The notes: generated by a model from the letters alone, not told the origin. A DNA stretch of 64,000 nt from an uncultured Acidobacteriota bacterium (GCA_937864465.1 CALMJU010000081.1:10857-74856), one strand, 5' to 3'; positions 9,922 to 38,942 are shown, counted from the stretch's first letter. Numbers and translations: made by a program.

Positions 9922-11697
9922 TCAGCGCCTCCGGAAGGCCCGCTCGATCTCGTCGAACGAAAGACGAAAGAGCACCGGCCTCCCGTGCGGGCACGTCGTG
10001 GGGCTCGAGGTCGAGAAGAGGCTCTCGAGCAGGGCGGCCATCTCCCCGCGGGACAGCGGATCGCTCGCCTTGACCGCGGCCCGGCAGGCCGCCGTCGTCA
10101 CGAGCCGCCGTCTCAGGCTCCCCACCGACGAGGCGGCGGACCGGCTCCGACCGGCCTCCCCCACGAGCTCCCGGAACAGCGCCGCGGCGTCGACGCCGGC
10201 CGCCAGGGACGGCACGGCGTCGAGCCGGACCGTGTTCCCTCCGAACGCTTCCAGACGGAACCCGAGGCGACGGAACTCCTCGATCTCCTCCTCGACGACC
10301 GCGAGCTCGTGGGGCAGGAGCTCGACCGCGAGCGGGAACAGGAGCGCCTGCGTCTCCGCGGCGCCCTCCTCCACCTGCCGCAGGAACCGCTCGAACAGGA
10401 TCCGCTCGTGCGCGGCATGCTGGTCCACGACGACCACCGCTTCCCCGTCGTCCGCGAGGATGTACGCGCCCCGGAACTGCGCCAGGGGAACCGGGGCCGC
10501 TCGCTCGTCGCGCCGGAACGAAAGCCCACCGGCCTCGCCCTCTCGCCCATCGCCGAGGTCGATCGCGCGGATCTCCGGCTCGACCCCGGGTGCCGACCAC
10601 GCCGCGGCGGGGGGAGCCGGAGGCGTCTCGCCCCGATCCCGGCTCGCCGGAGCGCCCTCTGCCACGCGCTCCGACCCGGAAGGGCGCAGGTCCTCCAGCC
10701 GCGGAACCGCGCGGCGTCCCGAGAGCGTCGAGGCCAAGGAGTCCCGCACCAGATCGTGCACCCACGACGACCGGGAGAAGCGCACCTCCAGCTTCTGCGG
10801 GTGCACGTTGACGTCGACTCCCCCCGGATCGATCTCCAGGAACAGGACGACCGTCGGGAATCGGCCTCCCGCGACGGTGTTCGCGTACGCTTCGGCGACG
10901 GCGTGGGAGAGCACCCGGTCCTGCACCACCCGCCCGTTCACGAACAGGTGCTGCGCGCCTCGACGGGGCTGGGCGTCGGCGGGGCGCCCCGCCAAGCCGT
11001 GCACCCGGGCCCCCTCGCGCTCGAGCGAGAACGGGACGAGCCGCCGCGCCGCGTCGGGGCCGAAGAGTCGCGCGGCGCGCCCTTCGAGGCTCGCGGTCCC
11101 CGGAAGATCGAGAAGGTGGGACTCGCCATGCCGCAACGAGAACCGCACACCCGGCCACGCCAGGGCGTATCGCGTCGCCCACCGCAGAACGTGGGAGATC
11201 TCCGTGGCTTCCGAGCGCAGGAACTTGCGCCGCGCGGGAACGTTGAAGAACAGCGACTGGACGTCGATCGAGGTGCCTCGCGGCAGCCCCGCCTCGCGCA
11301 CCGAGACGATCCTCCCCGCCCGCACCTCGATCTCGCTCCCCTGCCCGTCTCGGACGGCCGAGCGCAGGAGGAGCCGGGAGACCGCCGAGATGCTCGGGAG
11401 CGCCTCGCCGCGAAACCCCAGCGTCGAGATCGCCTCGAGGTCTCCTGCTTCGGAGAGCTTGCTCGTCGCGTGGCGCTCGAGCGCGAGAAGCGCGTCGTCC
11501 CGGTCCATCCCGCAGCCGTCGTCCCGCACGCGAATCCGGCGCTTCCCCCCGGACTCCACGACGATCTCCACGGACGAGGAGCCGGCGTCGAGGCTGTTCT
11601 CGACCAGCTCCTTGACGACCGACGCGGGGCGCTCCACCACCTCTCCCGCCGCGATCCGGTTGACGATCTGGTCGCTGAGGACCCGGATCCTCCCCAT
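9922..11697 (-). CDS. mutL: DNA mismatch repair protein MutL (endonuclease-motif type)
   Basis: 591 aa: MGRIRVLSDQIVNRIAAGEVVERPASVVKELVENSLDAG (GHKL ATPase). The C-terminal DQHAAHERILFE and CPHGRP motifs are those of endonuclease-proficient MutL. Confidence 0.96.
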   Translation of the reverse strand: MGRIRVLSDQIVNRIAAGEVVERPASVVKELVENSLDAGSSSVEIVVESGGKRRIRVRDDGCGMDRDDALLALERHATSKLSEAGDLEAISTLGFRGEALPSISAVSRLLLRSAVRDGQGSEIEVRAGRIVSVREAGLPRGTSIDVQSLFFNVPARRKFLRSEATEISHVLRWATRYALAWPGVRFSLRHGESHLLDLPGTASLEGRAARLFGPDAARRLVPFSLEREGARVHGLAGRPADAQPRRGAQHLFVNGRVVQDRVLSHAVAEAYANTVAGGRFPTVVLFLEIDPGGVDVNVHPQKLEVRFSRSSWVHDLVRDSLASTLSGRRAVPRLEDLRPSGSERVAEGAPASRDRGETPPAPPAAAWSAPGVEPEIRAIDLGDGREGEAGGLSFRRDERAAPVPLAQFRGAYILADDGEAVVVVDQHAAHERILFERFLRQVEEGAAETQALLFPLAVELLPHELAVVEEEIEEFRRLGFRLEAFGGNTVRLDAVPSLAAGVDAAALFRELVGEAGRSRSAASSVGSLRRRLVTTAACRAAVKASDPLSRGEMAALLESLFSTSSPTTCPHGRPVLFRLSFDEIERAFRRR

Positions 11698-11829
11698 CGC
11701 TCCTCCACCGGCCCCGCCGCCGCTTCAGGACGCCCCGCGTCATTTTTGCACACGACCGGCATCGTGGTGTCAGCGCGACGCGCCCGGACGGGCCGAGGCG
11801 GATTTCCTAGTATGCCAGTCGGGATGGTA

Positions 11830-11877
11830 GGCGGAAAATGGGACCGCCAACGTCGTTTTGCGGCCCAAATTTCCGCC
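11830..11877. repeat. imperfect inverted repeat / long stem-loop in the mutL-sigma fragment spacer
   Basis: The left arm is GGCGGAAAATGGGACCGCC (11830-11848). The reverse complement of the right arm GCGGCCCAAATTTCCGCC (11860-11877) is GGCGGAAATTTGGGCCGC. This gives 8 consecutive pairs plus two 3-bp blocks, interrupted by a small internal loop and a bulge. Confidence 0.4.
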
Positions 11878-11953
11878 CGGCGGCGCCCACGTCCGCCCTC
11901 CCAGGTCGGCACGATCGTTGCTCAGCGTTTCGCCGAGGGGTAAGGAGCCGACG

Positions 11954-12313
11954 ATGCTGATCCCGATGTTGCAACGAGAGCTCTCGATCGACGATTACGT
12001 CGATCACGAGGAAGAGTGCAGGCTCGGAACACTCATCGCCGACCCGAACAGCGACAGCCAGGAGCAGAGGCTGTACGCCAAGGAGGTCACGCTGCTCGTC
12101 GACCGCGCCCTGGGGAACCTCGACGAGCGGGAGCTCCACATCATCCGGAATCGCTTCGGCCTCCACGGCGGGAGCGAGATGACCCTCGAGGAGATCGGCA
12201 GGGGCCTCAACTTGAGCCGGGAACGAGTGCGGCAGCTCGAGAGGGAAGCCAAGGACAAGCTGCGCGCGACCCTCGGACGCCACCGCGGGAACCTGCGCTT
12301 CTCCTTGGCCTGA
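11954..12313 (+). CDS. orphan sigma-70 family C-terminal fragment (regions 3.2-4 only); intact ORF, either a stand-alone domain protein or a gene remnant
   Basis: 119 aa from ATG 11954, preceded by AAGGAG (11942-11947). ELSIDDYVDHEEECRLGTLIADP resembles region 3.2. LDERELHIIRNRFGL resembles region 4.1. MTLEEIGRGLNLSRERVRQLEREAKDKLR resembles the region 4.2 HTH of RpoD/RpoS-like sigmas. No region 1.2-3.1 sequence is present in any frame of the 256-nt upstream spacer. Confidence 0.6.
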   Translation: MLIPMLQRELSIDDYVDHEEECRLGTLIADPNSDSQEQRLYAKEVTLLVDRALGNLDERELHIIRNRFGLHGGSEMTLEEIGRGLNLSRERVRQLEREAKDKLRATLGRHRGNLRFSLA

Positions 12314-12333
12314 GAGCCGCGCGAACGCTTCAC

Positions 12334-12390
12334 GGCCCGCCGGCGCACGTTGTTTGCCCCCCGCGGCGCCGGCGGGCCATCTTTCTTCTC
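12334..12390 (+). terminator. intrinsic terminator after the sigma fragment (convergent with the end of the TamB-Omp85 ORF)
   Basis: A perfect 13-bp stem pairs GGCCCGCCGGCGC (12334-12346) with GCGCCGGCGGGCC (12366-12378) across a 19-nt loop. It is followed by the T-rich ATCTTTCTTCTC. Confidence 0.6.
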
Positions 12391-12426
12391 GGGAGAGCCG
12401 ACCGCGCGAGCTTCCTCGCGCCCGGG

Positions 12427-15400
12427 TCAGAACAGAATTCCGATCGCGAAGTAGAACTGACCCGGCGTCTCGTCCGGACGCCGGTCGAGCTTCCAGGCGT
12501 ACTCCGCCCGCACCGGCCCGATCGGCGTCAGGATCCTGAGACCGACCCCGGCATCCTCTCGAAGCCCCTCCGCGTCGATGCTCGAGAGGTCCTCCCACAC
12601 GCTCCCCGCGTCCGCGAAGAGCACCCCCCGAACCGGACCCCGCACCGGGAAGAGCCACTCCACGTTGACGATTCCGAGCGCCTCCCCTCCCGAGGGAATC
12701 CCCTCGACCGACGGGCCCACGGCGTCGCGCGCGAAGCCGCGGAGCGTCGACTCCCCCCCGGCGAAGTACCGCTCGGACAGCGGAACGCGATCCGTCGAGC
12801 CGAGGGGCAGCGCGAGGCCCAGCCGCGCCGCCCCCGAGACCGACACGTCGTTCCGGTACGTCTTCGTGAACGCCCCCCGAAGGAACAGCTTCGCGAACGT
12901 CTCCTCGGAGAGGAGCAGCGGCCCGAACACCGACAGCTCGGCGCTCGCGATCCCACCCCGAGTCGGGGAGAACACGTCGTCCCTCGTGTTCCGCACGACC
13001 GCGAAGGAGAGGTTCCCGAGCTGCACGTCCTCCAGCTTGTCCTCGAGGGCCGCGAGGGCGTCCTCCACGTTCGACAGCGTGACGTCCTGGTAGCTGTAGC
13101 GCAGGTGCCCGACCCACCCCGGCTTCGGACGCCGCTCGACACGGAAGCCGAGCGAGCGGGTGAACACGTCGTAGCCCGTCTCCTCGCGGCGCTCCCGGAA
13201 GATCGTGAACAGCGTGTCGAGCCTTCGGCCGAACAACCGCGGCTCCCGCGCGACCACCTGCATCCGGTTCTCCACGCCGCTGTACTTCCCCTGCAGCGCC
13301 ACGCTTCGCCCATACCCCCCGACGTTGTCGTGCCCCAAGGAGTACGTGGCCTGCGCCCCTCCCTCCGTGTCGTATCCCAGTCCCGCGGACACGTGGTAGG
13401 GGGCCGCCTCCTCGACCGAGATCCGGACGTCCTGCCCGCCCCCTCCGGCGCCGCCGCCCGGCGGGAAGTCGACTCGGACGCTCCGGAAGATCCCGAGCTG
13501 GTACAGGCGCCGCTGGGTCTCGAGGAGCCGCGCCCTCGACGCGGGATCCCCCGGAGCGAAGCCAACCTCGCGGAGCACCGTCGCGTCGCGCGTCCGCTCG
13601 TTCCCCTCGATCCGTACCGAGGCGACCGTCTTGCGCTGGCCCGGGGCGACGTCGAACTCCACGACGACTCCCCCGGAGTCGTCCGCGGATGTGCGGAGCT
13701 CGACGCGAACGTCGGGGTACCCCATCTCGTCGAAGCGCGCCCGGAGGGCGTTCTCGGCGCGGAGCCCGCGCGCGGGAGAGAAGACCTCCCCTTTCTCGAT
13801 CCCGGCCCATGCGCGCATCGTCGCCGGCGGGACGACGAGCCCCTCGGGAACGCGCACCTCCCTCACCGTGAAGCGGCGCCCCTCCTCGATCCGGAACGTG
13901 ACCGACGCTTCGCGGCCGTCGAGAGACAGGCTCACCTCCGGATCCCCGACCCGGACGCCCAGGAACCCGCGCTCCAGGTAGAGCGCGCGGATCGTGGCCG
14001 CGTCCTGTCGTAGCCCCTCCGAGTTCACGTGGCGCCGGCTCCACGCCGTGTCGGGACGTGTCATGAGGTGGCTCCGGATCTCGTCCCGCGAGAGCGACTC
14101 CCCTCCTTCGACGGAGACCTCGGCGATCCGAACGCGCCTTCCGCGATCCACCGAGTACCGGACGAGCTTCCGCACGCCGCGGAGGTTCTCCTCGCGGACC
14201 ACGTCGACGGCGTAGTAGCCGCGGTCGCGGAAATATCGGCGAATCTCCTCCTCTCCGTCCGCCGTGAGGTCCTCGGGCGCCGCCGGCTCGCCCCACAGCC
14301 CGACGAGGCGCCGGCGGATGCGCCGGCGATCCCAGATGGGGACGCCTCGAATTTCCAGATCGACCTCCGGTCCCGGCTCCACGCGGTAGGTCACCGCCAC
14401 CCCGCCCTCGATCTCGACCGCCTCGGGGATCACTCGGGCGAGGAAGCGGTCCCGGGCCGCCTCCGCTCGGCGGATCTCGTCGGCGCTCTCCATCATCCGC
14501 GACCGCCGGAACGCGTCGCCCTCGCGGAGCGGAAGCTTTCTCGCGAGGCGCGCCCCCTCCTCGGAACCCGCCCCCGCGAAGGCGACCGACTCGACCGTCA
14601 TGCCGTCGAGGGAGGCGCCCGCCGAGGCGACCGGCAACGGTTGCGGGGAGAACAGCCCGCGGGGGCGGCCGAGCCGGAACCTCCGCGAGTACCGGATGTC
14701 CCCCGCGCTCGATCCGCTCGTGTCGTAGAGACCGGCGATCTGAAAATGCCGCGTCGCCTGCCACTCCACCTTGTAGATGCTCTTCTCCGCATCCCCGAGA
14801 TCGACCGAGTACACCAGTCGCACGTCCTCCGCCAGCTTCTTCCCGACGGTGACGCGGGTCGACGGATCGGCTTGCCCTTCGACGAGGAACGGGTCGATCC
14901 GCAGCTGGTCGAGGCCGAACGACTTCTTGATCGGCTCCCCGAGGACGCCCGCCACCGCGCCGGCCACGTAGGCGCCCGACACGTGGCTCGCGGCGAGCCC
15001 CCCGGCCCCGACGCCCGCCGCGACCTCGCTCCAGTCCTCGGCCGTGCTACCGGTCAGGAGCAGCGCCATGACGTCCTGCTGCGAGAGCGGGGGATCGCTC
15101 GTCAACTCGTAGTCGAACTTCTCGAGCCTCCCTTCCGCGCGCAACCGCACGTCGTACCGATCCACGCGCGTCTCCGCGCTCACCGCGAGGTAGGGATCGA
15201 TTCGATCCGGGTCGCTGAAGTCGAGCGTGCCGGAGAGGATCCGGTAATCGACCCCGCGAAACGTCAGCACTCCGCCCTCGAGCGCGGAGATCCGGCCGAT
15301 CACCTCCGGTCTCTCGAGGTCGCCGCCGAGATCGAGGGACACCGCCGATTCGAGCCTCGCCATGTTGTTCCGAACCCACACGCCGTCCTCGGCCCGCACC

Positions 15401-18400
15401 CGGACCCCGAGCGCGACTCTCCCGAGGAATCCCTCCTCCGACGTCTCCACGGGCTCGATCCCCCTGGTCCCCAGGAGCGCGGCGACGTCGAAGTCGGTCG
15501 CGTACGACCCGCGCAGGATCTTCAGTTCGCCCGACAGGCGGGATCGCCCCTCCCGTCCCGCTAGGACGAGCCTTCCCTCGTAGACGCCCCGGAATCCGGG
15601 CGGGTACTCCACCGCGACGCGCGAGACGCCGAACTCGATCTCGTGCTCGCGGATCCCGTCGCCTCCGACGGCTCCTCCCCCCCGGACGAGGATCTCGCCG
15701 CCCCCCGACAGGGCGCGCACGTCCTCGAGCTCGAACCTCCTCCCCTCGAACCGCACCCGGCCGTCCAGTCCGTCCAGGCGAAGGGGGAATCCCTCGAGGC
15801 GCAACCGTCCCTCCTCGACGCCGGCGGCCCCGCGAATCTCGGGGGCATCGGCCCTCCCCTCGACCTCGAGATCCAGCCGCAACCGGCCCGACGCCTTGAG
15901 GCCGGGCACGAGCGAGGAGAGCGCAGAGAGATCGATCGAGCCCCGCGCGCGGCCGGAGAGCCCCTCGTCGGCGAACCGATAGGCGAAGACGCCCTCGACA
16001 TCGATTCCTCCGCCCGTGATCCGGCAGGGGCCCGCCTCGAACCGTCCTCGCGAGAGCCGGAGCGGCACCGGCGCAGCGATCGAGGCGGAGCGGCCCCCGG
16101 AAACCACCTCCGCGTCGGTCAGGCTTCCCGATCCCTCCATCTCCTCGGGGGTCGCCAGGGGACCGTCGACCGCGATCTCGGCGCTCACCCGGAGTCTCGG
16201 CCCCGAGCCACCCTCCGCGGAGAGGGGGATCTCCGCCCTTTGCAGCACCGCCGTCGCGCGGATCGGAAGCGAATCCTCCCATCCCACGCTCCCGGCGACC
16301 CTCCACCTCGCCTCCTCTCGTCCCTCCACCTCGAAGCCGAGCGCATCGGGGGACACGCGCAGGATTCCGCCGATCTTCCCGAGCCTCCCCTCGCCGATTC
16401 GAAACTCCGACCCCGCCAACGAGACCTCGCCCGTCGTCCCGTCGGCGCCGAACCGGACCTGTCCCTGCGCGAGGAGCTCGCCCCCGACGTCGAGCCCCCG
16501 GCGCCGAAGGGCCGCGACCTTGGAGACGTCGAGGCGCGCGGATTCCACGCGGACATCCCCCGAGCCCGACTCCATGCCGACGCGAACGGAGAGCCGCCCC
16601 TCCAAGGCGAGGCCGGAGACCTCGACGTCTCGCGCCTCCAGGACTCCATCCCTCGCCTCGAGCCTGACGCGTCCCAGCTCCAGCGGCTCCCCGAGGACCC
16701 GCCCCTCGAGGAGCATGGCCTCTCCTCCCCCCTCGAGCCCGGCCGCGCCCCGCCGGAGGGCCAGGGACCCGCCGATCCTCCCGTCGGCGTCGAGATCGGA
16801 TCCCAGGCGCCGCAGCACGCGCGCGAGCCTCACGTCCTCCATCTCGAGGTCCACCCGCTCGATCGAGGACGAAGCCGTATCGAGGACGCAGGATGCGCGC
16901 AGGCGCTGCGAGGCGTCCTCGAGCGCGAGGCTTCGGAGATCGAGGCGGCCTCCCGCCACCCGGAGGGAGAGCGTCCCGCGGTCGAACGTCTCGCCGCTCC
17001 AAGATCCCTCGGCCAGGTCGACGTCCACCTCCACCGCGGGGTCTTCCCCAAGCTCGACGGCGGTGCGGAATCTCCCCTGCCCTGCGATCGGCTCCCTGAC
17101 GATCGCGGGCAGCTCGATTCCGAGCGATCCCAGGACGCGCAGCACTTCCTCGAGGGTCCGCCCCCCGGACCGCGTCTCGCCCGAGATCGCCGCCCGGCTC
17201 ATGCCCGCCTCCGGCGCGAGCGCGACATCGACCGCGAGGTCCAGCCTCGTCGCCTCGGTCTCCAACGCAGCGCCCGGGATCACGAAACGCCCCGTCCGGA
17301 ACTCGAACGGCCCCTCCATGCGGGCGGGGATGCCCAGCGCGGCCGGTCCCGGCTCCGCCGCGATCCTCCCGCCCCCCTCCCAGGTCTCCGGCGCGGCCGG
17401 CTCCCCGCGCAGCTCGAGGTCGACGGCCGCCCGCGCACTCACGGGGAGCGGAAGCCGCGCCAGGGCGAGGACCGAGCCGACGTCGACCTCGCTCCCGCTC
17501 ACGCGCGCATCGAAGCGCACGGGGTCGGAGAGATCGACGTCCACGGACCCGCGGAGGCTCCCGCCGAACGCTCTCGCCTCGAGTCCGCGGACGGCGAGAC
17601 GTCTCTCGTGGAACTCGACCCGCCCCGAGGCCTCCGTCGCGCGGATCGGCCCCAGCCGGCCCTCCCGGACCCGAACCGGCCCGACGGCGCGGAGGTCCCC
17701 CTCGAGGCCGTCGAGCACCAGATCGGCCCGCGCCTCCCCCGCGATTTCCGGGAACGACGGATCGAGCCACTCGCCCAGCGCGCCGAGATCGGCCACCAGC
17801 GACACGCGCCCCGTGTACGGAGCCCCCTCGCTCCTCGCGACGTTGGCGCGGAACGTCCCGTCGAGGCCCGGTGCGGTGACCCGGGAGCCGCGCAGCTCGA
17901 CCCTCGACTCCGTCAGGACGAAGCTCGAGCGGACCCGCAGAGGATACGGCCGGGCGAACGGAGGGCGACGCAACGAGATCGAGAGATCGGCCTCTCCGGC
18001 GAGCGCGCCCAGGAAGGAGGACCACGACGCCTCGATCGACACGTCCCGCGCCTCGAGGTCGAGCGGCGCCCGCCGATCGGCCCAGCGAACCAGGCCGTGC
18101 GCCACGTGCAGGCGATCGACCCGGATGTGCAGGCCCTTCCCCCGGGGCTCCCTTCGGGCGTACTCCGCCAGGAACTCCGGCGTGAGGGCGATCTGCGCCG
18201 CCTCCGTCTCGACCTCGGCGAGACGAACCCGCCCCAGTCCCAGCGAGACGAGCCCCTGCCAGGCGAGCTTGACGCGAAGGCGGGCGGCCGAGGCCTCGAG
18301 GGGCTCCGCCCCCTCGGCGGGCACCGATGCCGAGACGTCGCGCGCCTCCGCCTCGAGCCGCAGAGGGTGGACGCAAAGCGATCCGATCCGCAGCGAGCCC

Positions 18401-18567
18401 CCCGTGGCGGCCGCAAAGGCGCTCTCGATCCGAGCCCTCGCCTTTCCCTCCAGATCGGCCCGGGACAGCGCCAGCGCGCCCGCGCCCAGGCCCGCGGCGA
18501 GGACCGCGAGAGCGCCCGCCGCGAGCGCTCGGCGGCTCCGGCGCCGCGCAAGGGGCGCGGGACTCAC
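12427..18567 (-). CDS. single ORF fusing a TamB-like (DUF490) translocation-and-assembly protein to a POTRA-repeat Omp85 (TamA/BamA-like) beta-barrel
   Basis: 2046 codons from GTG 18567, which overlaps the rlmI-like stop (GTGA). The N-terminus is a signal-anchor-like segment (RRRSRRALAAGALAVLAAGLGAGALAL). The TamB-type C-terminal region (...LTSDPPLSQQDVMALLLTG...WQATRHFQIAGLYDTSGSSAGDIRYSRRF) ends near 14677. A 25-residue linker follows. From 14601 there are about five POTRA-like repeats and an Omp85 barrel ending ...GQFYFAIGILF. I re-translated 14581-14760 by hand and found no stop. Confidence 0.85.
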   Translation of the reverse strand: MSPAPLARRRSRRALAAGALAVLAAGLGAGALALSRADLEGKARARIESAFAAATGGSLRIGSLCVHPLRLEAEARDVSASVPAEGAEPLEASAARLRVKLAWQGLVSLGLGRVRLAEVETEAAQIALTPEFLAEYARREPRGKGLHIRVDRLHVAHGLVRWADRRAPLDLEARDVSIEASWSSFLGALAGEADLSISLRRPPFARPYPLRVRSSFVLTESRVELRGSRVTAPGLDGTFRANVARSEGAPYTGRVSLVADLGALGEWLDPSFPEIAGEARADLVLDGLEGDLRAVGPVRVREGRLGPIRATEASGRVEFHERRLAVRGLEARAFGGSLRGSVDVDLSDPVRFDARVSGSEVDVGSVLALARLPLPVSARAAVDLELRGEPAAPETWEGGGRIAAEPGPAALGIPARMEGPFEFRTGRFVIPGAALETEATRLDLAVDVALAPEAGMSRAAISGETRSGGRTLEEVLRVLGSLGIELPAIVREPIAGQGRFRTAVELGEDPAVEVDVDLAEGSWSGETFDRGTLSLRVAGGRLDLRSLALEDASQRLRASCVLDTASSSIERVDLEMEDVRLARVLRRLGSDLDADGRIGGSLALRRGAAGLEGGGEAMLLEGRVLGEPLELGRVRLEARDGVLEARDVEVSGLALEGRLSVRVGMESGSGDVRVESARLDVSKVAALRRRGLDVGGELLAQGQVRFGADGTTGEVSLAGSEFRIGEGRLGKIGGILRVSPDALGFEVEGREEARWRVAGSVGWEDSLPIRATAVLQRAEIPLSAEGGSGPRLRVSAEIAVDGPLATPEEMEGSGSLTDAEVVSGGRSASIAAPVPLRLSRGRFEAGPCRITGGGIDVEGVFAYRFADEGLSGRARGSIDLSALSSLVPGLKASGRLRLDLEVEGRADAPEIRGAAGVEEGRLRLEGFPLRLDGLDGRVRFEGRRFELEDVRALSGGGEILVRGGGAVGGDGIREHEIEFGVSRVAVEYPPGFRGVYEGRLVLAGREGRSRLSGELKILRGSYATDFDVAALLGTRGIEPVETSEEGFLGRVALGVRVRAEDGVWVRNNMARLESAVSLDLGGDLERPEVIGRISALEGGVLTFRGVDYRILSGTLDFSDPDRIDPYLAVSAETRVDRYDVRLRAEGRLEKFDYELTSDPPLSQQDVMALLLTGSTAEDWSEVAAGVGAGGLAASHVSGAYVAGAVAGVLGEPIKKSFGLDQLRIDPFLVEGQADPSTRVTVGKKLAEDVRLVYSVDLGDAEKSIYKVEWQATRHFQIAGLYDTSGSSAGDIRYSRRFRLGRPRGLFSPQPLPVASAGASLDGMTVESVAFAGAGSEEGARLARKLPLREGDAFRRSRMMESADEIRRAEAARDRFLARVIPEAVEIEGGVAVTYRVEPGPEVDLEIRGVPIWDRRRIRRRLVGLWGEPAAPEDLTADGEEEIRRYFRDRGYYAVDVVREENLRGVRKLVRYSVDRGRRVRIAEVSVEGGESLSRDEIRSHLMTRPDTAWSRRHVNSEGLRQDAATIRALYLERGFLGVRVGDPEVSLSLDGREASVTFRIEEGRRFTVREVRVPEGLVVPPATMRAWAGIEKGEVFSPARGLRAENALRARFDEMGYPDVRVELRTSADDSGGVVVEFDVAPGQRKTVASVRIEGNERTRDATVLREVGFAPGDPASRARLLETQRRLYQLGIFRSVRVDFPPGGGAGGGGQDVRISVEEAAPYHVSAGLGYDTEGGAQATYSLGHDNVGGYGRSVALQGKYSGVENRMQVVAREPRLFGRRLDTLFTIFRERREETGYDVFTRSLGFRVERRPKPGWVGHLRYSYQDVTLSNVEDALAALEDKLEDVQLGNLSFAVVRNTRDDVFSPTRGGIASAELSVFGPLLLSEETFAKLFLRGAFTKTYRNDVSVSGAARLGLALPLGSTDRVPLSERYFAGGESTLRGFARDAVGPSVEGIPSGGEALGIVNVEWLFPVRGPVRGVLFADAGSVWEDLSSIDAEGLREDAGVGLRILTPIGPVRAEYAWKLDRRPDETPGQFYFAIGILF

Positions 18568-19739
18568 GGTACCGCCAGGACGAAGCACTTGAGGTAATGG
18601 CTCTCCGGAAATCCGAGCCGGATCGGGTGGTCCCTCCCCTGCGTCCGCTTCTCGACCACACGGAGGACCCGGCCCGCATCCGCCGCCGCCTCGGCGAGCA
18701 CGTCGAGGAAATCCGACTCGCGGAGGTTGTACGAGCACGACGAGGTCACGAGGATCCCGCCGGCCCCGAGGAGCCTCATGGCGCGGAGGTTGACCTCCTT
18801 GTAGCCTCGGCGCGCCTCCGCCGCCTCCCCGCGGCTCTTGGCGAACGCCGGGGGATCGAGGATCACCTGATCGAAGCGCTCCCCGCGCCGCTCCCGTGCG
18901 CGCAGGTCCTCGAAGACGTTCGCGACCGAGAAGCGGACCGATGAGGCGAGCCCCGCCGCCGCCGCCGCCGCCGCGCCGCGCGCCACCGCCTCGGCCGAGG
19001 AATCGACGGCCTCGACCTCGGCCCCGCGGAGAGCGGCCGCGAGACCGAATCCGCCCTGGTAGCAGAAGGCGTCGAGGACGCGTCCCCGGCTCCACTCCGC
19101 CGCGGCGATCCGGTTCTCGACCTGGTCCAGGAAAGCCCCAGTCTTCTGGCCCCGACGGCAGTCGATCCGCTGCACGATCCGCCCTTCCCGGACCTCGATC
19201 TCGTCGGGTGTCCGCCCGCGCAGCTGCCGCACCTCCCTGGGCAGCCCCTCGAGCGCGCGCACCGCCGGGTCGTTCCGGGCGAGCACCGACTCCGTCTCCA
19301 CCCGCTCCACGAGCAGGTCCACGAGGAGATCCAGGAGGCGTTCCGTAGCGGCGGTCAGAGACTGGACGACCAGGTGGCTCCCGTAGCGGTCCGCGACCAG
19401 GCCCGGGATCCCGTCGCTCTCGCCGAAGACGAGCCGCATGGCCTCGGAAGCGGGCCGCACTCGCGATCGCCACTCGAGCGCTCGCTCGATCCTCCCCTCC
19501 CAGAACGCGCGGTCGGGCTCCTCGGCCGAGAGCGTCACGAACCGCAGCGCGATCTTCGAGGTCGCGGAGTAGAAGGCCCAGCCGAGCCGCTCCCCCCGCT
19601 CGGTCTCCGCCGGGATCAGGTCGCCGTGCGCGGCGCCGCGAGGATCCGGCACGTCGTCCCGGAAGACCCAGGGGTGGCCCGCACGCACCCGCCTCGCACC
19701 TCGGCGGCTGACTCGTACGGGGACCCTAGTTCCCGACAT
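18564..19739 (-). CDS. rlmI: class I SAM-dependent rRNA methyltransferase, RlmI-like (PUA-like N-terminus plus MTase)
   Basis: 391 aa. It contains RRVRAGHPWVFRDDV, GIPGLVADRYG, and VLDAFCYQGGFGLAAA...VILDPPAFAKS, which is the RlmI/YccW-type architecture. Confidence 0.85.
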   Translation of the reverse strand: MSGTRVPVRVSRRGARRVRAGHPWVFRDDVPDPRGAAHGDLIPAETERGERLGWAFYSATSKIALRFVTLSAEEPDRAFWEGRIERALEWRSRVRPASEAMRLVFGESDGIPGLVADRYGSHLVVQSLTAATERLLDLLVDLLVERVETESVLARNDPAVRALEGLPREVRQLRGRTPDEIEVREGRIVQRIDCRRGQKTGAFLDQVENRIAAAEWSRGRVLDAFCYQGGFGLAAALRGAEVEAVDSSAEAVARGAAAAAAAGLASSVRFSVANVFEDLRARERRGERFDQVILDPPAFAKSRGEAAEARRGYKEVNLRAMRLLGAGGILVTSSCSYNLRESDFLDVLAEAAADAGRVLRVVEKRTQGRDHPIRLGFPESHYLKCFVLAVP

Positions 19740-19808
19740 CGGAGCTGCCTCCCGGTGCGGGCTTTGCAGCGGGGGGGCCGGGCGGAACGCGCTCCCGGGA
19801 GCCGGGCG

Positions 19809-20612
19809 CTAGTCCTCTTCGGCCTCCTCGGAATCGTCGTCCTCGACGCCGAGGGGCTCCTCCTCCAGATCCTCCGCCCCCTCCGGAGCAATCTCGGTGT
19901 CGTACTCCTGCGACGGCGACTCCTCGGCCTCGTCTTCCTCTGCCTCGTCGGCATCGAGACGGCTCGGATACTCGGGCAGGAGCCCCTGCTCCTCCAGGCC
20001 TTGGCACCGGATGCAGTAGCGGGCCCAAGGCGCCACCTCGAGCCGCTTGCGCGCGATCTCCTCGCCGCACTGGAGGCAGGATCCGTAGTCCCCGTGCCCG
20101 ATGCGGGCCAGGGCCTCCTCGACCAGCACGAGCATCTTCCGGTCCATCTCGCTCAGCGACAGCCCGAACTCCTTCGTGTAAGAGTTCACCGCGTAGTCGA
20201 TGTAGTCCTCGGTCCCGCTGTCCGGGTGCGTCCGGCTGTCTCCGGTCGACAGGCTGTACGCCCGGACCAACTCCCGGTGCCGCTCCAGCAGGAGCCGCCG
20301 GAACTCCTCGGCCTCCTTCCGACGCATTCTCCGCTTCGGCGCGACCCGCCTCTTCGGCTCGGCCACGCGCGTCTCCACGCCGGCCTTCGTCCGCCCCGTC
20401 GGCGCGGGCACCGGCGCCGGCCCCTTCGGCGGCGCGCTCGTGCGCGGGACCGCCTTCCGCGCCGCCGGCCTCCGCGGCCGAGGCTCGCTCTTCCTGTCGC
20501 GCGCCTTCGGCGCCGCCTTCGGCTTCGCCTTGATCTTCGGGGCTCGCGCGGCAACCCGCTTTGCGCCCTTCGACGCTCCGCTCCCCTTCCGCTTGCCGGC
20601 TCTCGTCGTCAT
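19809..20612 (-). CDS. dksA: DksA/TraR-family C4 zinc-finger regulator with a basic N-terminal extension and an acidic C-terminal tail
   Basis: 267 aa. Residues 1-98 are K/R/A/P-rich (KIKAKPKAAPKARDRK...). The core carries the coiled-coil tip motif DYIDYA (DxxDxA) and the zinc finger CLQCGEEI...(17)...CIRC. The last 50-odd residues are D/E-rich (DADEAEEDEAEE...DDDSEEAEED). Confidence 0.9.
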   Translation of the reverse strand: MTTRAGKRKGSGASKGAKRVAARAPKIKAKPKAAPKARDRKSEPRPRRPAARKAVPRTSAPPKGPAPVPAPTGRTKAGVETRVAEPKRRVAPKRRMRRKEAEEFRRLLLERHRELVRAYSLSTGDSRTHPDSGTEDYIDYAVNSYTKEFGLSLSEMDRKMLVLVEEALARIGHGDYGSCLQCGEEIARKRLEVAPWARYCIRCQGLEEQGLLPEYPSRLDADEAEEDEAEESPSQEYDTEIAPEGAEDLEEEPLGVEDDDSEEAEED

Positions 20613-20674
20613 GGCCCCCTCCCGCCGCCCGTGCCGCGGGCTCCCGCTCCCCCGGCCCCCGAAAAAAGCGTGTA

Positions 20675-20703
20675 AATATAGCCTCGGCGCCCGGCACGGT
20701 CAA
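20675..20703 (-). promoter_or_regulatory. sigma70-type promoter upstream of the dksA-like gene
   Basis: The minus strand reads TTGACC (20703-20698), a 17-nt spacer, then TATATT (20680-20675). It lies about 60 nt upstream of ATG 20612, which has a GGGAGGGGG SD. Confidence 0.55.
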
Positions 20704-20731
20704 GGATTTCCGGCAGAAGTCCAGCCCCCGA

Positions 20732-23476
20732 TCAGGCCGTTCCCGACCCTCCCCCTCCCTGCTCCGCGAGCGCCGCCTGGGCGGCCGCCAGCCTCGCCAC
20801 GGGAACGCGGTACGGGGAGCAGGACGCGTAGTCGAGCCCCACGCGGTGGAAGAAGGCAACCGATTCGGGGTCGCCCCCGTGCTCGCCGCACACCCCGACC
20901 TTCAGTCCGGCTCGTCCCCTGCGGCCCTCCTCCACGCCCATCCGCACGAGGCGTCCGACCCCTTCCTCGTCGATGCCCTGGAACGGGTCGCGCCGCAGGA
21001 TGCGGCGCTCGAGGTAGGCGCCCAAGAACTTCCCGACGTCGTCCCGGCTGTAGCCGTACGTCATCTGGGTCAAGTCGTTGGTGCCGAAGGAGAAGAACTC
21101 CGCCTCCCTCCCGACCGCCTCGGCGATCAGGCAGGCGCGAGGGATCTCGATCATCGTCCCGACCAGGTACGGAACCGCGATCCGCGTCCTGCGATGCACC
21201 TCCTCGGCGATCGCCCGCGTCCTCGCGGCGATGTCGGTGAACTCCCGAACGGTTCCTACCAGCGGGATCATCACCTCCGGAAGGACGCGGATCCCCTTCT
21301 TGACGCACTGGGCGGCCGCCTCGAAGATCGCGCGCGCCTGCATGTCGTAGATCTCAGGAAACGTCACTCCGAGCCGGCATCCGCGGTGGCCGAGCATCGG
21401 ATTCGCCTCGTGCAGCTGCGCCGCCTTCTCCTCGAGCGTCCGCGCCGGCACGCGCATCTCTCGCGCGAGCTTCCGGAACTGCTCGGGCTGCGTCGGGAGA
21501 AACTCGTGCAGCGGGGGGTCCAGGAGCCGGATCGTCACCGGGAGCCCGTCCATCGCCTTGAAGATCCCGGCGAAGTCGCGGCGCTGCATCGGAAGCAGCT
21601 TCGAGAGCGCACGGCGGCGCTGCGAGACGTCCTCGGAGAGGATCATCTCCCGCACGGCCGCGATCCTGTCCTCGGCGAAGAACATGTGCTCGGTCCGGCA
21701 CAGACCGATCCCCTCGGCGCCGAAGGCTCTCGCCACCGCCGCATCGTGCGGGGTGTCGGCGTTCGTGCGGATCTTGAGCCTCCTCGTCGCATCGGCCCAC
21801 TCCATGAGGGCGGCGTACCTCCGGTACAGCGGGGACCGCTCCGCCTTGAGCGCGCGGCGAACCAGGACCTGCTGGACCTCGGAAGGGTGGGTGTCGAGGG
21901 CTCCCAGGATCACCTCGCCGGTGGAGCCGTCGATCGACAGCGCGTCGCCTTCCTTGAGCACCTTCCCCGCGGCGCGGAGCCGGCCGGCGTCGGGGTCCAC
22001 GAGGAGCGCCTCCGCTCCGACCACGCACGGCTTCCCCATCCCTCGCGCCACGACGGCGGCGTGCGAGGTCATCCCTCCCCGGCTCGTCAAGATGCCCACC
22101 GCCGCCACCATGCCTGCCAGGTCCTCGGGACTGGTCTCCGCCCGAACCAGGAGCACCCTCGCGCCCTTTCCGGCCATCTCCACCGCCCGCTTCGCGGAGA
22201 ACGCCACGACGCCCGAGGCCGCGCCGGGCCCCGCGGGGAGTCCCTTCGCCAGGACCCGTCCCTCGCGGCGCGCGCGCTCCTTGTCCCGCGTGTCGAAAAT
22301 CGGGGCGAGGAGCTGCACGAGCATGTCGGGCTCGACCCGCTGCAGAACCGCCTTGCGGTCGATGACGCCGGCCTCGTGGAGGTCGAAGGCGATGTGCAGC
22401 GCCGCCAGTCCCGTCCGCTTGCCCGTACGGGTCTGCAGCATGTAGAGGCGCCCGCGCTCGATCGTGAACTCGATGTCCTGCATGTCCTTGTAATGCGCCT
22501 CGAGCCGTCCCCGGATCTCGAGGAGCTGCGCGAAGCACCGCGGCATCGTCTCCTCGAGCGAGCCGCCCGCGTCCCCGCCGGCCTGTGCGCGGGAGATCGG
22601 CCGCGGCGTGCGGATCCCCGCGACGACGTCCTCCCCCTGCGCGTTCGGGAGGTACTCGCCGTAGAACACGTTCTCGCCCGTGGCGGGATTCCTCGTGAAC
22701 GCCACGCCGGTGGCGCAGTCCTCGCCGAGGTTCCCGAACACCATGCACTGGACGTTGACGGCCGTCCCGAGATCGTCGGGGATCGCGTACTGCCTCCGGT
22801 AGATGCGCGCCCTCTCGTTCATCCAGCTCCGGAACACCGCGGCGATCGCCCCCCAGAGCTGCTCCCGCGGATCCTCCGGAAACGGACGCCCCGCGGCCTT
22901 GCGGACCTTCTCCTTGTAGCGGCGCACCAGCGCCTCGAGGTCCCCGGCCGAGAGGTCCGTGTCGTGCCTGGCGTGACGGGCTCTCTTCATCGCGACCAGC
23001 AGGTGCTCGAACTCCTGCTTCTTCACTCCCAGGACGACGTCCGCGTACATCTGGATGAACCGGCGGTACGAGTCGAACGCGAAGCGCCGGTCGCCCCCCG
23101 CTCGGGCCAGCCCCTCCACCGCCCGGTCGTTCAGGCCAAGATTCAGGATCGTGTCCATCATCCCCGGCATCGAGAACTTCGCCCCCGAGCGCACGGACAC
23201 CAGCAGCGGGTCCGATTCGTCCCCGAAGCGCTTTCCCTGCGCCTTCTCGAGCCCGGCGAGCGCGCGCTTCACCTGCTCCTCGAGTCCCTCGGGCATCTTC
23301 CCGTCCGCCTCGAAATAGCGCACGCACGCCCGCGTCGAGATCGTGAAGCCGGGGGGAACGGGAATCCCGAGGTTCGTCATCTCGGCGAGGTTCGCTCCTT
23401 TCCCCCCCAGCACGTCCTTCATGCCGGCGTTTCCCTCGGCGGCACCGTTCGCGAAGAAGTACACGAGCTTGTCCAT
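20732..23476 (-). CDS. ppdK: pyruvate, phosphate dikinase
   Basis: 914 aa: [48 protein letters not shown]... The phospho-His region is GILTSRGGMTSHAAVVARGMG. The C-terminal PEP-utilising TIM barrel has FFSFGTNDLTQ. Confidence 0.97.
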   Translation of the reverse strand: MDKLVYFFANGAAEGNAGMKDVLGGKGANLAEMTNLGIPVPPGFTISTRACVRYFEADGKMPEGLEEQVKRALAGLEKAQGKRFGDESDPLLVSVRSGAKFSMPGMMDTILNLGLNDRAVEGLARAGGDRRFAFDSYRRFIQMYADVVLGVKKQEFEHLLVAMKRARHARHDTDLSAGDLEALVRRYKEKVRKAAGRPFPEDPREQLWGAIAAVFRSWMNERARIYRRQYAIPDDLGTAVNVQCMVFGNLGEDCATGVAFTRNPATGENVFYGEYLPNAQGEDVVAGIRTPRPISRAQAGGDAGGSLEETMPRCFAQLLEIRGRLEAHYKDMQDIEFTIERGRLYMLQTRTGKRTGLAALHIAFDLHEAGVIDRKAVLQRVEPDMLVQLLAPIFDTRDKERARREGRVLAKGLPAGPGAASGVVAFSAKRAVEMAGKGARVLLVRAETSPEDLAGMVAAVGILTSRGGMTSHAAVVARGMGKPCVVGAEALLVDPDAGRLRAAGKVLKEGDALSIDGSTGEVILGALDTHPSEVQQVLVRRALKAERSPLYRRYAALMEWADATRRLKIRTNADTPHDAAVARAFGAEGIGLCRTEHMFFAEDRIAAVREMILSEDVSQRRRALSKLLPMQRRDFAGIFKAMDGLPVTIRLLDPPLHEFLPTQPEQFRKLAREMRVPARTLEEKAAQLHEANPMLGHRGCRLGVTFPEIYDMQARAIFEAAAQCVKKGIRVLPEVMIPLVGTVREFTDIAARTRAIAEEVHRRTRIAVPYLVGTMIEIPRACLIAEAVGREAEFFSFGTNDLTQMTYGYSRDDVGKFLGAYLERRILRRDPFQGIDEEGVGRLVRMGVEEGRRGRAGLKVGVCGEHGGDPESVAFFHRVGLDYASCSPYRVPVARLAAAQAALAEQGGGGSGTA

Positions 23477-25590
23477 TAGGGTCTCCTGTCGGCGTCACCG
23501 GGAAGCTCCCGGATGTCGAAGTAGCGGGTCAGAAGGGAACCCAGCCTCGCCAGCAGCTCGTGCCGTTGATAGGTCCCCTGCGGGTCCTCCGGATCCACGA
23601 CGAGCACCTCGTCGAAGAAAGCGGCAACGGGCTCTGCGAAGTCCGCGAGATGGTCCAGCACCTCGGCGTACGCCCGCCGGTCCGCGGCGGTCCGGATCGC
23701 GGGCTCCTCGCGGCCGATCGTCTCCTCGAGCCGGCGGGCCGCCCCGGCCGCCGCGATCGCCGCGCCCGGCGCCCATCCCGCGTCCGCGCTCCGCTCGATC
23801 AGCGCCGCCGTCTGTCTCAGGATGTTCGAGGCGCGCTTCGTGAGCTCCACGAGCTTCCGGAAATCCGCCCTCTCCCGCACCGCGCGCACCGCCTCGAGCC
23901 TCGCCAGGACGTCGCCCAAGGGGAGGGCGGCCGCCGCGGTCCCGCCGCCGGCCTGAAGGACGGCGTCGATCTCGTGGAGCGTGAATCCCCGCTCGCGGAG
24001 GAAGTCGCCGAGGCGCTGCTCGAGATACGCGAAGATCTCGCTCCGCTGCTCTCCACCGGTCGCCAGCGCGCTCAGCTCCCACAGCGCCCCGATCGAGACG
24101 CCCCAGGAGCGCTCGCACGCGATCCGGAAGATTCCCGCCGTCGCCCGTCGCAGGCCGAAGGGATCGCGAGAGCCCGTCGGCCGCTCCCCCACCGCCAGGA
24201 GCGACGCCACGGCGTCGAGCTTGTCCGCCACCGACAGCACGGCCCCGAGCTCCGTGGCCGGCGGGTCGTCGTCGGGCCCTCGAGGCCGGTAGTGCTCGTA
24301 CACCGCCGCCGCGACCCTCTCGTCCACCCCCTCGCGGCGGAGCAGGAGTCCACCGACGACCCCTTGCAGCTCCGGGAACTCGGCGACCAGGCCGGTGAGG
24401 AGATCCGCCTTGCAGAGGAGCGACGCCCGCTCCGCCGCGCCCTTCTCCTCCTCCGGGAGCCCGAGCTGCCGTGCCAGCGCCCCGGCCAGCCCGGCGACCC
24501 GCTCCGCCTTCTCCCGGTACGTTCCGAGCTTCTCGTGGTAGACGATCCCGTCGAGCCGCGCGACGCGCGACGCCAGCTCCGTCTTCCCGTCCTCGCCCCA
24601 GAAGAACCTCGCGTCCTCGAGGCGGCCGCCCACGACCCACTCGTTCCCCCGGCGGACGTGTCCCGCGGGATCCCGATCGGTGTTCGCCACGGCGAGAAAG
24701 ACCGGCAGGAGGCGACCGTCGCGCTGCACCGAGAAGGCCTTCTGATGGTGGCGAAGGGTGGCCACGAGGACTTCCCTGGGCAGGTCGAGATACTCCGCCG
24801 CGAAGCGGCCCGTCACGACTCCCGGCCACTCGACGAGGTCCGCCACCTCCTCGAGGAGCCGCTCGTCCTCCACGATCTCGCCGCTCTCGGCCGCGGCGGC
24901 CTCGGCGAGCTGACGCGCCAAGGTGCCGCGGCGCGCCGCCGGATCCGCGAGGACGAACGCCCGCTCCAGCTCGGCGGCGTAGACTCCCGCGTCCGCGATC
25001 CGCACGGCGCCGGGCGCCAGGAACCGATGGCCCCGAGAGTGCCGGTCCGCCTCGATCCCGAACAGGACCAGCGGCAGCACCTCGCCGCCGTGCAGGGCGA
25101 CGATCCAGTGCACGGGGCGGACCCAGCGGTGCGCGCCCTCGCCCCAGCGCATCGTCTTGGGGAACGACATGCCACCCACCGCCTGCTCCAGCCCCGCGCC
25201 GAGGACCTCTCCCACCGACCGTCCGCGGACCGTCCTGCGGAACGCCGAGTACTCCCCCTTGTCCGTCCGCACGGCCACGAGGCAGGCAGGCGGGATCCCG
25301 TGCTTCCGCGCGAACCCGACCGCGGCGGCGGTCGGCGATCCGTCCCCCGCGAACGCGGCCCGGGCCGGCGGCCCGAGCACGGTCTCCTCCCGGTCGGCCT
25401 GCCTCTCCTCCACCCCCTCCACGCGGACGGCGAGCCTCCTCGATCCGCCCCACGCCGAGGCGTCCCCGTGGGCGAGCCCCGCCTGATCCAGGATCGCGAC
25501 GATCCGGCGGCCGAGGCTCTCCGCCGCTCCCGCGATCCCTCCCGCCGGGATCTCCTCGCAGCCGATCTCGATGAGGAGAGGGGCGCTCAC
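23476..25590 (-). CDS. glyS: glycine--tRNA ligase beta subunit
   Basis: 704 aa from GTG 25590, which overlaps the glyQ stop (GTGA): [18 protein letters not shown]...[10 protein letters not shown]...HRFLAPG. The TAA stop overlaps the ppdK ATG by 1 nt. Confidence 0.95.
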
Positions 25591-37769: not shown

Positions 37770-38942
37770 TCAGCGGATCGCTTCGAGATCGTCCGGCCAG
37801 GTCCCTCCGCAGCCCTGGAACGATCTTCCCCGGCCGCCCCCTTTTGCTCCGAGGGCCCCCCGAAGCCTGGCCGCCAGCTCCGCGACGTCCGAAGGTCCCG
37901 AGGCTCCCGACTGCACGAGGAAGCAGGTCTCGGGAGGCTCCCCCGCCCGGCCGACGAGCGCGACGACGGCCTCCGGCCGCGCCTTCAGCACCGCCGAGGC
38001 GATCGCGCGCAGCCTCTCGGGTCCCGCCCCGTCGATCCTCCGCGCGAGCAGAGGCCCCGCCTCCGCCGCCATCGAGAGCGCCTCCCGCTCCGCGATCTCG
38101 CCTTCCAGACGGCGCAAGCCCCGCTCGAGCAGCCGGTGCCCCTCCTCCCGCACGTCGAGCACCGAGGCGAACTCCTCCCTGCGGGTGCCGAGCCTCGCCT
38201 TGAGGCCCTCCTCGATCTCCGCGCCTCGCCGGAGCTCCCGCAGGACCCTCTCTCCCGCCAGGAAGCGGATTCTCGCCCCTCCCCGGGCCGGAGCGGCGTC
38301 CAGCAGGCGCACCATCTGGATCTCGGCGAGGCGGCGCACGTGCGTCCCGCCGCACGTGTTGAGGTCGAGCCCCTCGATCTCGACGAGACGGATGTCGCCG
38401 CGGTGCCCCTCGGGCAGCCCCCTCGATCGCACGGGAAGGGACTCGTACTCCTCCCTCGTCACCCAGCGGGCGCCGACCCTCCGGTCCAGCCGGATCTCCG
38501 CGTTGACCTCGTCCTCGAACCCCGCGAGGCGCTCCCGCCCCGGCACCTCCCCCGCAATCTCGATCGCCGCGTACTCCTCGCCGAGATGGAACGCGGTCGT
38601 CGGGAGTCCGTGCCGGGAGAGGAGAATGGCGGTCAGGAGGTGCTGCGCGGTGTGCTGCTGGCTCCGCTCGAAGCGGAGCGGCGCGTCGATCCTCGCGACG
38701 GCGGGCCCCTCCGGGAGGGGGCGCTCGAGGACGTGCAGGATCTCCTCGCCGCGGGACAGGACGTCGAGGACCGGCACGTCCGAAATGGTGCCCCGGTCCG
38801 CCGCCTGCCCCCCGCCTCCGGGGTAGAACACCGTCGCCTCGAGCCGGACCCATGGCTTCCCGCCCGTGGCGCCCGTCGCGACGATCTGCGTCTCGACGAG
38901 ATCGAGCTGCGGGTCCTCGTGGAACAGCTTTCGGTCCGGCAA
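37770..38942 (-). CDS. alaX: alanyl-tRNA editing protein (AlaX-L type: editing domain plus C-terminal DHHA1-like region)
   Basis: 390 aa from TTG 38942. It has the zinc-binding editing motifs HTAQHLL and CGGTHV, as in the AlaRS/ThrRS second additional domain. Confidence 0.88.
   Translation of the reverse strand: MPDRKLFHEDPQLDLVETQIVATGATGGKPWVRLEATVFYPGGGGQAADRGTISDVPVLDVLSRGEEILHVLERPLPEGPAVARIDAPLRFERSQQHTAQHLLTAILLSRHGLPTTAFHLGEEYAAIEIAGEVPGRERLAGFEDEVNAEIRLDRRVGARWVTREEYESLPVRSRGLPEGHRGDIRLVEIEGLDLNTCGGTHVRRLAEIQMVRLLDAAPARGGARIRFLAGERVLRELRRGAEIEEGLKARLGTRREEFASVLDVREEGHRLLERGLRRLEGEIAEREALSMAAEAGPLLARRIDGAGPERLRAIASAVLKARPEAVVALVGRAGEPPETCFLVQSGASGPSDVAELAARLRGALGAKGGGRGRSFQGCGGTWPDDLEAIR

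Follow-up and report, generated by a model that had tools for sequence, protein, structure and literature searches.

A TamB-like protein and an Omp85 barrel encoded as one reading frame in an uncultured Acidobacteriota bacterium

The fused reading frame

We analyzed a 64,000-nucleotide stretch of DNA (the window) from an uncultured Acidobacteriota bacterium (GCA_937864465.1, CALMJU010000081.1:10857-74856), in which one long open reading frame (ORF) on the minus strand encodes a TamB-like protein followed by POTRA domains and an Omp85 barrel. An earlier note on this DNA had described a stop-free frame from GTG 18567 to the stop at 12427. It was read as a complete TamB in codons 1-1297, with a basic N-terminus and one hydrophobic anchor, then a 25-residue linker, then about five POTRA domains and a barrel in the last 724 codons, this Omp85 part having no signal peptide. 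[quoted passage not shown] Re-translation of the frame gave 2046 codons without an internal stop. The features of the frame and its surroundings are as follows.

12427..18567, minus strand: whole fused ORF, 2046 codons plus stop (12427-12429), no internal stop on translation
18466..18522, minus strand: N-terminal hydrophobic segment, residues 16-34, AAGALAVLAAGLGAGALAL, with basic RRRSRR before it; the sole strongly hydrophobic 19-mer (Kyte-Doolittle 1.99)
15454..18462, minus strand: TamB/AsmA-like beta-groove body, residues 36-1038, from AlphaFold2, Foldseek and weak Pfam DUF748 and YhdP matches
14677..15453, minus strand: TamB C-terminal domain (DUF490, PF04357), residues 1039-1297; Pfam TamB 137.3 bits against a cut-off of 22.4
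14677..14703, minus strand: last TamB strand GDIRYSRRF, residues 1289-1297, beta-signal-like, internal rather than C-terminal; alternating pattern conserved
14602..14676, minus strand: linker RLGRPRGLFSPQPLPVASAGASLDG, residues 1298-1322, 25 aa; AlphaFold2 predicted local distance difference test (pLDDT) below 50, disordered
13438..14601, minus strand: five POTRA domains, residues 1323-1710, with no signal peptide before them; Pfam POTRA 131 bits in four stretches, and AlphaFold2
12430..13437, minus strand: 16-strand Omp85 barrel, residues 1711-2046; Pfam Omp85 169 bits at residues 1748-2046, a match to the entire profile (positions 1-325 of 325); high pLDDT
18564..19739, minus strand: PUA and SAM-methyltransferase (RlmI-like) gene, a neighbor on the upstream side that does not belong to the machine; TGA stop and GTG start of the fusion overlap in the sequence GTGA
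9922-23476: gene order ppdK, dksA-like zinc-finger gene, PUA/SAM methyltransferase gene, fusion, sigma-70 region-4 gene (opposite strand), mutL

The sequence has a guanine plus cytosine (GC) content of 72% and contains chance ORFs of 985 and 1210 aa in overlapping frames. The length of the ORF was therefore weak evidence, and the real test was its domain content in one frame. Searches with hidden Markov models (HMMs), which the earlier note had proposed, matched the TamB and Omp85 models to the two halves in a single frame. The GC content at the three codon positions of the ORF is 0.78, 0.56 and 0.84.

The frame from GTG 18567 extends further 5', with its first start codon at 19473 and a stop-to-stop limit at 19725. 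The GTG at 18567 is nevertheless the supported start, because it forms the four-nucleotide GTGA overlap with the methyltransferase gene, because the same overlap is called in an orthologue of 72% identity (P0002), and because the N-termini of aligned homologues match residue 1. A start further 5' was rejected, as that stretch is taken by the methyltransferase gene in another frame. An internal start at Met1323 was also rejected, as its product would have no signal peptide and would not be exportable. The overlap of the two genes suggests translational coupling. Public collections contain an identical 2046-aa protein (P0001), and a cluster-mate of at least 90% identity (P0106) is on a second contig.

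Anatomy of the TamB half

AlphaFold2 predicted a helix at residues 10-34, and the hydrophobic segment within it is a putative Sec signal-anchor that would sit in the inner membrane. The model of residues 1-1190 (pLDDT 86.7) showed this N-terminal helix and then a continuous beta array. Up to its DUF490 end, the TamB-type groove is roughly 1250 residues long. The best PDB matches to this model in Foldseek were E. coli TamB (9xdd_B, TM-score 0.64; and 9xdc_B), the TamB beta-taco structure 5vtg (TM-score 0.68) and the bridge-like lipid transfer protein LPD-3. Pfam DUF748 gave a weak match to residues 8-179. A phmmer search of PDB sequences with the TamB half alone had no match and a profile of the family was needed, which matched E. 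coli TamB (9xdc_B, residues 721-1249) with E=4.5e-49.

The DUF490 domain was modeled as helices plus six strands, the same organization as in the C-domain of E. coli TamB (PMC12800296). Its last strand ends at F1297; of 217 fused sequences, 183 have F, L, W or Y at this position. A free TamB C-terminus is absent, as residues 1289-1297 precede the linker and 724 more residues. The NCBIfam model of the autotransporter assembly complex TamB (NF047952) scored 27.4 bits against a cut-off of 825, and we attribute this low score to the distance of the protein from proteobacterial TamB proteins, its fold being TamB-like.

The linker and the Omp85 half

The 25-residue linker ends immediately before Met1323, which opens the Omp85 half with MTVESVAFAG. 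There is no hydrophobic stretch in residues 1290-1345, and nothing at the junction exceeds 1.0 on the Kyte-Doolittle scale. Across the 217 fused sequences the linker has a median length of 18 aa (5-95% range, 11-29) and is rich in G, A, P and R; a hydrophobic 12-mer, defined by a Kyte-Doolittle value of at least 1.5, was found in only two of them. The junctions of 57 aligned homologues, down to approximately 20% identity, were all short, rich in R, P, A and G, and without a hydrophobic segment. The DNA of the linker contains short C runs.

AlphaFold2 modeling of residues 860-2046, run with the 57 homologues, gave a pLDDT of 83.6 and a predicted TM-score of 0.71, with the C-terminal strands at pLDDT 77-90. 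The model runs from beta-groove through the helices and six strands to the low-confidence linker, five POTRA domains and the barrel, and each POTRA domain was predicted as a beta-alpha-alpha-beta-beta unit. The barrel has the loop-6 motif LRGF at 1942-1945 and its own C-terminal beta-signal (...YFAIGILF), with R1943, G1944, G2043 and F2046 invariant among the 57 homologues. In Foldseek, full-length, five-POTRA BamA could be aligned with this model over about 800 columns.

The sequence comparisons also placed the Omp85 half closer to BamA than to TamA. The NCBIfam BamA model TIGR03303 (cut-off 297.15 bits) scored 328.5 bits with the whole protein and 333.7 bits with the Omp85 half. This model does not separate canonical BamA from TamB-linked copies, since Omp85 proteins encoded beside a separate tamB also pass it (303-332 bits). 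The TamA model NF047950 reached 134.5-139.7 bits against a cut-off of 625, and the five POTRA domains differ from the three of TamA. Searched against PDB sequences, the family profile scored 335 bits with BamA and 220 bits with TamA. Two other features of BamA are missing: the Omp85 half is fused to TamB rather than being a stand-alone protein with its own cleavable signal peptide, and the gene is outside the rseP-bamA-skp-lpxD neighborhood, which is typical of BamA without strictly defining it.

The anatomy proposed in the earlier note, namely the anchor, the complete TamB ending at GDIRYSRRF, the linker and its borders, the lack of a signal peptide on the Omp85 part and the POTRA-barrel region, on which Pfam, AlphaFold2 and Foldseek agree, was borne out. 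Its naming of the protein as a TAM-type module was right in having a TamB half and an Omp85 partner, with the qualification that this partner is BamA-like, not TamA-like, and fails the TamA model.

Conservation of the fusion

A fused orthologue of 72% identity (P0002, NCBI GCA_964590285.1) and a second of 38% identity (P0003), found in an ENA megahit assembly and a Logan assembly, each lie in the same gene neighborhood as the fusion in the window. The core of dksA-like, methyltransferase, fusion, sigma-70 region-4 and mutL genes is kept at both levels of identity, with ppdK at the 38% orthologue being inverted and set apart by inserted genes. The methyltransferase neighbor and the overlap are kept in the orthologous loci L087 and L088. 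These neighbors of the fusion are housekeeping genes and not envelope-biogenesis genes.

Comparison of the window gene with that of P0002 revealed 514 synonymous and 565 non-synonymous codon changes, with the linker collinear and in frame, and the ORF is under purifying selection. When residues 860-2046 were searched exhaustively with HMMER against 1.84 billion cluster representatives, the 150 best representatives at 50% identity all cross the junction in one chain, being either full-length proteins of about 1900-2460 aa or fragments. The family comprises well over 150 clusters at 50% identity, because rank 150 still had E=4e-109. Independent assemblies, Illumina as well as long-read, show this architecture in hundreds of divergent sequences, and the fusion has been kept in hundreds of Acidobacteriota lineages. 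The earlier note had named uniformly split orthologues as an observation that would speak against a fusion; instead, the closest relatives are fused with an in-frame linker and 150 of 150 representatives span the junction. An indel artefact is excluded, because independent assemblies have the same ORF, synteny is kept, and the divergence across both modules is rich in synonymous changes.

In four long-read MFD contigs of metagenome-assembled genomes (MAGs; L023, L028, L071 and L079) the tamB/omp85 region is in multiple short ORFs. These broken ORFs are consistent with homopolymer frameshift errors, and fused or split calls in such contigs need care.

Split relatives and the origin of the fusion

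Scanned with the 11 closest sequences, the GTDB species genomes yielded 584 relatives, of which the best 80 are almost all Acidobacteriota MAGs. Among these 80, the closest relatives (33-38% identity) belong to Candidatus Polarisedimenticolia or Polarisedimenticolaceae, and others to Thermoanaerobaculia, Vicinamibacterales and, in one case, Holophagae. Models derived from the family were then used in six-frame HMM scans, by which 75 loci could be classified. The fusion was a single ORF in 24 of the 75, and in the other 51 tamB was immediately followed by omp85. The two genes of the split loci are in different frames in 48 cases and in the same frame with one stop between them in three.

The TamB of the split loci terminates in the aromatic residue of its last strand (e.g., ...RVRHTF* and ...QWQRRF*), and a classic signal peptide (e.g., MRLPVACLFVLLAAAPPAAQS and MRAAVLLLLLAALPVRPAFAQS) opens the Omp85, which starts at the tamB stop or close to it. 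A signal-peptide-like hydrophobic 12-mer, by the threshold used for the linkers, followed the tamB stop in 46 of 51 split loci, compared to the 2 of 217 fused linkers. Based on this difference, the fused form has lost the stop codon as well as the signal peptide, as a functional fusion requires. The three same-frame split loci (stops at L037:8148-8150, L078:11411-11413 and L079:11447-11449) retain an Omp85 that has a Met and a signal peptide of its own; a single mutation would lead to read-through here, but these loci are not fusions. Other unfused arrangements were tamB then omp85 with a 4-nt overlap (L084:6001-12476), and omp85, a SurA-like chaperone gene and tamB, in that order (L086:1986-10470). 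The last of these corresponds to the order BamA-TamB in the Acidobacteria sampled by Heinz et al. 2015 (PMC4494059).

In neighbor-joining trees of POTRA5 plus barrel (100 bootstraps), the fused, split and 900-1000-aa stand-alone modules were apart from stand-alone, BamA-sized proteins of 700-860 aa in 76% of bootstraps. As judged from these sequences, the fused Omp85 derives from a TamB-associated paralogue and not from the housekeeping BamA. The fused modules fell into two robust groups, one of 61 sequences and the other, which includes the window, of 37. The joint monophyly of the two groups was recovered in only 12-14% of bootstraps, so there may have been one or two fusion events, both old. 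None of the megabase-scale contigs among the best 80 relatives had both a fused and a split system, a weak hint that the fusion replaces the split pair.

Comparison with known systems

The E. coli TamA-TamB complex (9xdc/9xdd; PMC12800296, PMC13119328) resembles the fusion in having an anchored beta-groove with a DUF490 domain and a partner made up of POTRA domains and a 16-strand Omp85 barrel. In both, the TamB part ends in a beta-signal-like strand, and the two TamB parts match by profile and by fold. The fusion differs in being one polypeptide rather than two that dock non-covalently, in having five POTRA domains and a BamA-like Omp85 without a signal peptide, and in that its docking strand is internal. 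The order of the modules differs also, as TamB precedes Omp85 in the fusion whereas tamA precedes tamB in Proteobacteria.

The split tamB-omp85 operons of Thermoanaerobaculia and Vicinamibacterales are from the same phylum, have the same modules in the same order, and have overlapping or abutting genes. Their Omp85 proteins pass the BamA model and group with the fused ones, away from BamA-sized proteins. They differ from the fusion in having two genes, a TamB that ends at the aromatic residue, and an Omp85 of about 900-1000 aa that has its own signal peptide in 46 of 51 cases. Such Omp85 proteins have been described with up to seven POTRA domains (Heinz et al. 2015; PMC4494059), and the "second BamA" that these authors reported in Acidobacteria is probably among the split operons. 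In Borrelia burgdorferi (PMC5582053, PMC11361582) the gene order is also tamB-bamA, and TamB binds the POTRA domains of a five-POTRA BamA; by contrast to the fusion, these are two proteins, and that BamA is the only, canonical BamA, with a signal peptide. Borrelia TamB-BamA and the acidobacterial second BamA with TamB are the nearest described arrangements, and both consist of separate proteins.

TIC236 and TOC75 of chloroplasts are separate proteins that serve protein import. TIC236, an inner-envelope TamB homologue, is described as reaching the outer-envelope Omp85 TOC75 via its C-terminal domain (bioRxiv 10.1101/2021.04.25.441383). The PlpD-type patatin-POTRA-Omp85 proteins (type Vd; PMC11116518) are similar to the fusion, and a precedent for it in nature, in having a functional module on the same chain as the barrel and N-terminal to it. 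However, that module is a secreted lipase passenger with a cleavable signal peptide, and the proteins have neither an inner-membrane anchor nor a span of the periplasm.

Full-text searches of 7.7 million PMC papers and bioRxiv revealed no description of a natural TamB-Omp85 fusion, nor do the main papers on TAM evolution and structure and the main review mention one, subscription-only literature being outside the scope of the search. The suspicion of novelty voiced in the earlier note stands within this open literature. Database names for these proteins are generic ([quoted passage not shown], and "BamA/...TamB" at JGI). As the sequences were already public under such names, what appears to be new is solely that they are recognized as a fusion.

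Proposed mechanism of the fused protein

We interpret the ORF as a genuine and anciently conserved fusion that forms a single-chain TamB-Omp85 (TAM-like) trans-envelope module of Acidobacteriota, and assign this reading a probability of roughly 0.7. E. coli TamB is anchored in the inner membrane, carries phospholipids in its groove and contacts all three POTRA domains of its partner (PMC12800296, PMC13119328), and its DUF490 domain docks into TamA with the last, beta-signal-like strand pairing with TamA beta1 (PMC12800296). By analogy, the N-terminal segment of the fusion would target the chain to Sec and, like that of E. coli TamB, serve as a signal-anchor that remains in the inner membrane, while the remainder would be threaded into the periplasm. 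The C-terminal barrel would be inserted by a separate BAM, and the DUF490 end would dock in cis on the POTRA domains or barrel of its own chain. The groove would then carry phospholipids between the membranes and perhaps aid in outer-membrane protein assembly, as has been shown of E. coli TamAB. Being fused would make partner choice and 1:1 stoichiometry obligatory and would allow the export of an Omp85 half that has no signal peptide of its own. The mature form, topology and activity described here are predicted by that analogy, and the features of sequence and fold are what the analysis shows. As for the single polypeptide bridging both membranes claimed in the earlier note, the one conserved ORF held up; the bridging itself would depend on the chain escaping cleavage after export.

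Several observations weigh against this interpretation. Between the last TamB strand and POTRA1, which is expected to be the domain farthest from the barrel, there is a linker with a median of 18 residues, whereas the E. coli counterpart of the strand is a free C-terminus at the barrel; docking in cis as in E. coli may thus involve steric strain. Such a strain would be relieved if the linker were cleaved after export or if docking took place in trans. Mean-field direct coupling analysis of the last TamB strand against barrel beta1 (217 fused sequences, effective number 206) gave only noise and no coupling signal, with no ladders among the top pairs even within the barrel. Neither of the equivalog cut-offs for proteobacterial TamB (NF047952) and TamA (NF047950) was reached. 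No canonical BamA was shown in the fusion-bearing genomes, although this was a weak search, covering 10-kb flanks and database Omp85 matches. The mature form, cleaved or intact, is itself a prediction.

Alternative explanations

A vanishingly improbable explanation is that two adjacent genes were joined by a sequencing or assembly indel or by a recent stop-codon mutation to give a non-functional protein. Split tamB-omp85 pairs do exist in related classes, three of them in the same frame with a single stop (L037, L078 and L079), and the linker DNA has its short C runs. However, hundreds of divergent sequences from Illumina and long-read assemblies share the architecture, the signal peptide is gone rather than merely read through, synteny and codon-level conservation run across the junction, and the errors in long-read contigs (L023 and L028) break the ORF rather than fuse it. 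Independent assemblies, conserved synteny, the in-frame linker and the absent signal peptide effectively refute an artefact or pseudogene. It is more plausible, but still rather unlikely, that the fusion serves biosynthesis only, as a precursor that is exported via its N-terminal anchor and whose linker is subsequently cleaved by a protease of the periplasm to give a two-protein, TAM-like assembly. The cut would release a TamB with a free, beta-signal-like C-terminus and an Omp85 without a signal peptide. The linker should be protease-accessible because it is disordered (pLDDT <50), short and rich in Arg, Pro, Gly and Ala; the docking strand is a free C-terminus in E. coli (PMC12800296), the split relatives end at exactly that point, and the cut would relieve the strain of a strand tied to POTRA1. 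Nevertheless, there is no conserved cleavage motif, the linkers varying freely in sequence and length (11-29 aa), no dedicated protease gene is conserved beside the fusion, and linkers this short suit a tether more than a processing site.

A further alternative concerns the Omp85 half, which might be the only BamA-type insertase of the cell, tied to an inner-membrane-anchored lipid bridge. This half passes TIGR03303 by itself (333.7 against 297) and shares its number of POTRA domains, five, with canonical BamA, BamA structures score better than TamA structures with the family profile (335 and 220 bits), none of the fusion-bearing contigs yielded a canonical BamA, and Borrelia TamB works with its only BamA (PMC5582053). 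We consider this very unlikely. The search for a second BamA was weak, covering 10-kb flanks and the Omp85 matches listed, and the split TamB-linked Omp85 proteins pass the BamA cut-off also. The Acidobacteria of Heinz et al. 2015 have a canonical BamA in addition to the TamB-linked second copy (PMC4494059), the fused modules group with TamB-linked paralogues and not with BamA-sized stand-alone proteins, and the gene lies outside the rseP-bamA-skp-lpxD context. A more speculative extension, in which the fused protein of some Acidobacteriota would be the sole BamA-type insertase and would couple protein insertion to phospholipid supply, is quite unlikely as well. A related idea is docking in trans: as a tether of 11-29 residues may bar docking in cis, the strand might instead enter the barrel of a neighboring chain, giving chains or rings of bridges.

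Other Omp85-family barrels do co-occur with the fusion, as shown by two cases. In one MAG, a PlpD-like patatin-POTRA-Omp85 (type Vd) gene (L017:12-1268, plus strand) lies 8.6 kb upstream of the fused gene. A fragment of the orthologue of this patatin-Omp85 (P0382) is on the 3,516,849-bp contig CAWIIB010000009.1 together with a fused protein (P0007). The extra Omp85 near the L017 fusion was considered as a candidate BamA and rejected, as it is the PlpD-like patatin-Omp85. A canonical bamA (P0177) was identified in an rseP-bamA-skp-lpxD cluster, on a contig without the fusions found here.

Implications for outer-membrane biogenesis

If the single-chain module is correct, it bears on a current question, as TamB and other AsmA-like bridges are the present candidates for the phospholipid route to the Gram-negative outer membrane. 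How TamB engages its Omp85 is debated, with a stable hybrid barrel (PMC13119328) and two states (PMC12800296) having been reported in cryo-EM studies. As independent evidence of the "Rosetta-stone" kind, the fusion would point to an obligate 1:1 unit of TamB and a BamA-like Omp85 outside Proteobacteria. It would also place a hard geometric constraint on the complex, with the docking strand within about 18 residues of POTRA1, and would provide a single-chain object for structural work. An Omp85 can apparently lose its signal peptide and ride on the signal-anchor of its partner. The biogenesis of such a chain is a problem in itself, as its roughly 220 kDa would be anchored in the inner membrane at one end and would have a barrel that depends on BAM at the other. 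We consider these findings of solid interest to the field of outer-membrane biogenesis, without the current picture being overturned.

Other features of the window

A 652-aa ORF in the window (23495-25453, minus strand) had no Pfam match. It is probably a wrong, overlapping frame, since the syntenic locus has glyS and glyQ between ppdK and recO and the GC content is high. ARAGORN called a tRNA-Ser(cga) at 38631-38709 (plus strand), which is probably a false positive because it is inside a minus-strand ORF (37770-38972) with high GC at the third codon position and is not confirmed by Rfam. A tRNA-Gln(ttg) at 53442-53516 (minus strand) was confirmed by both ARAGORN and Rfam.

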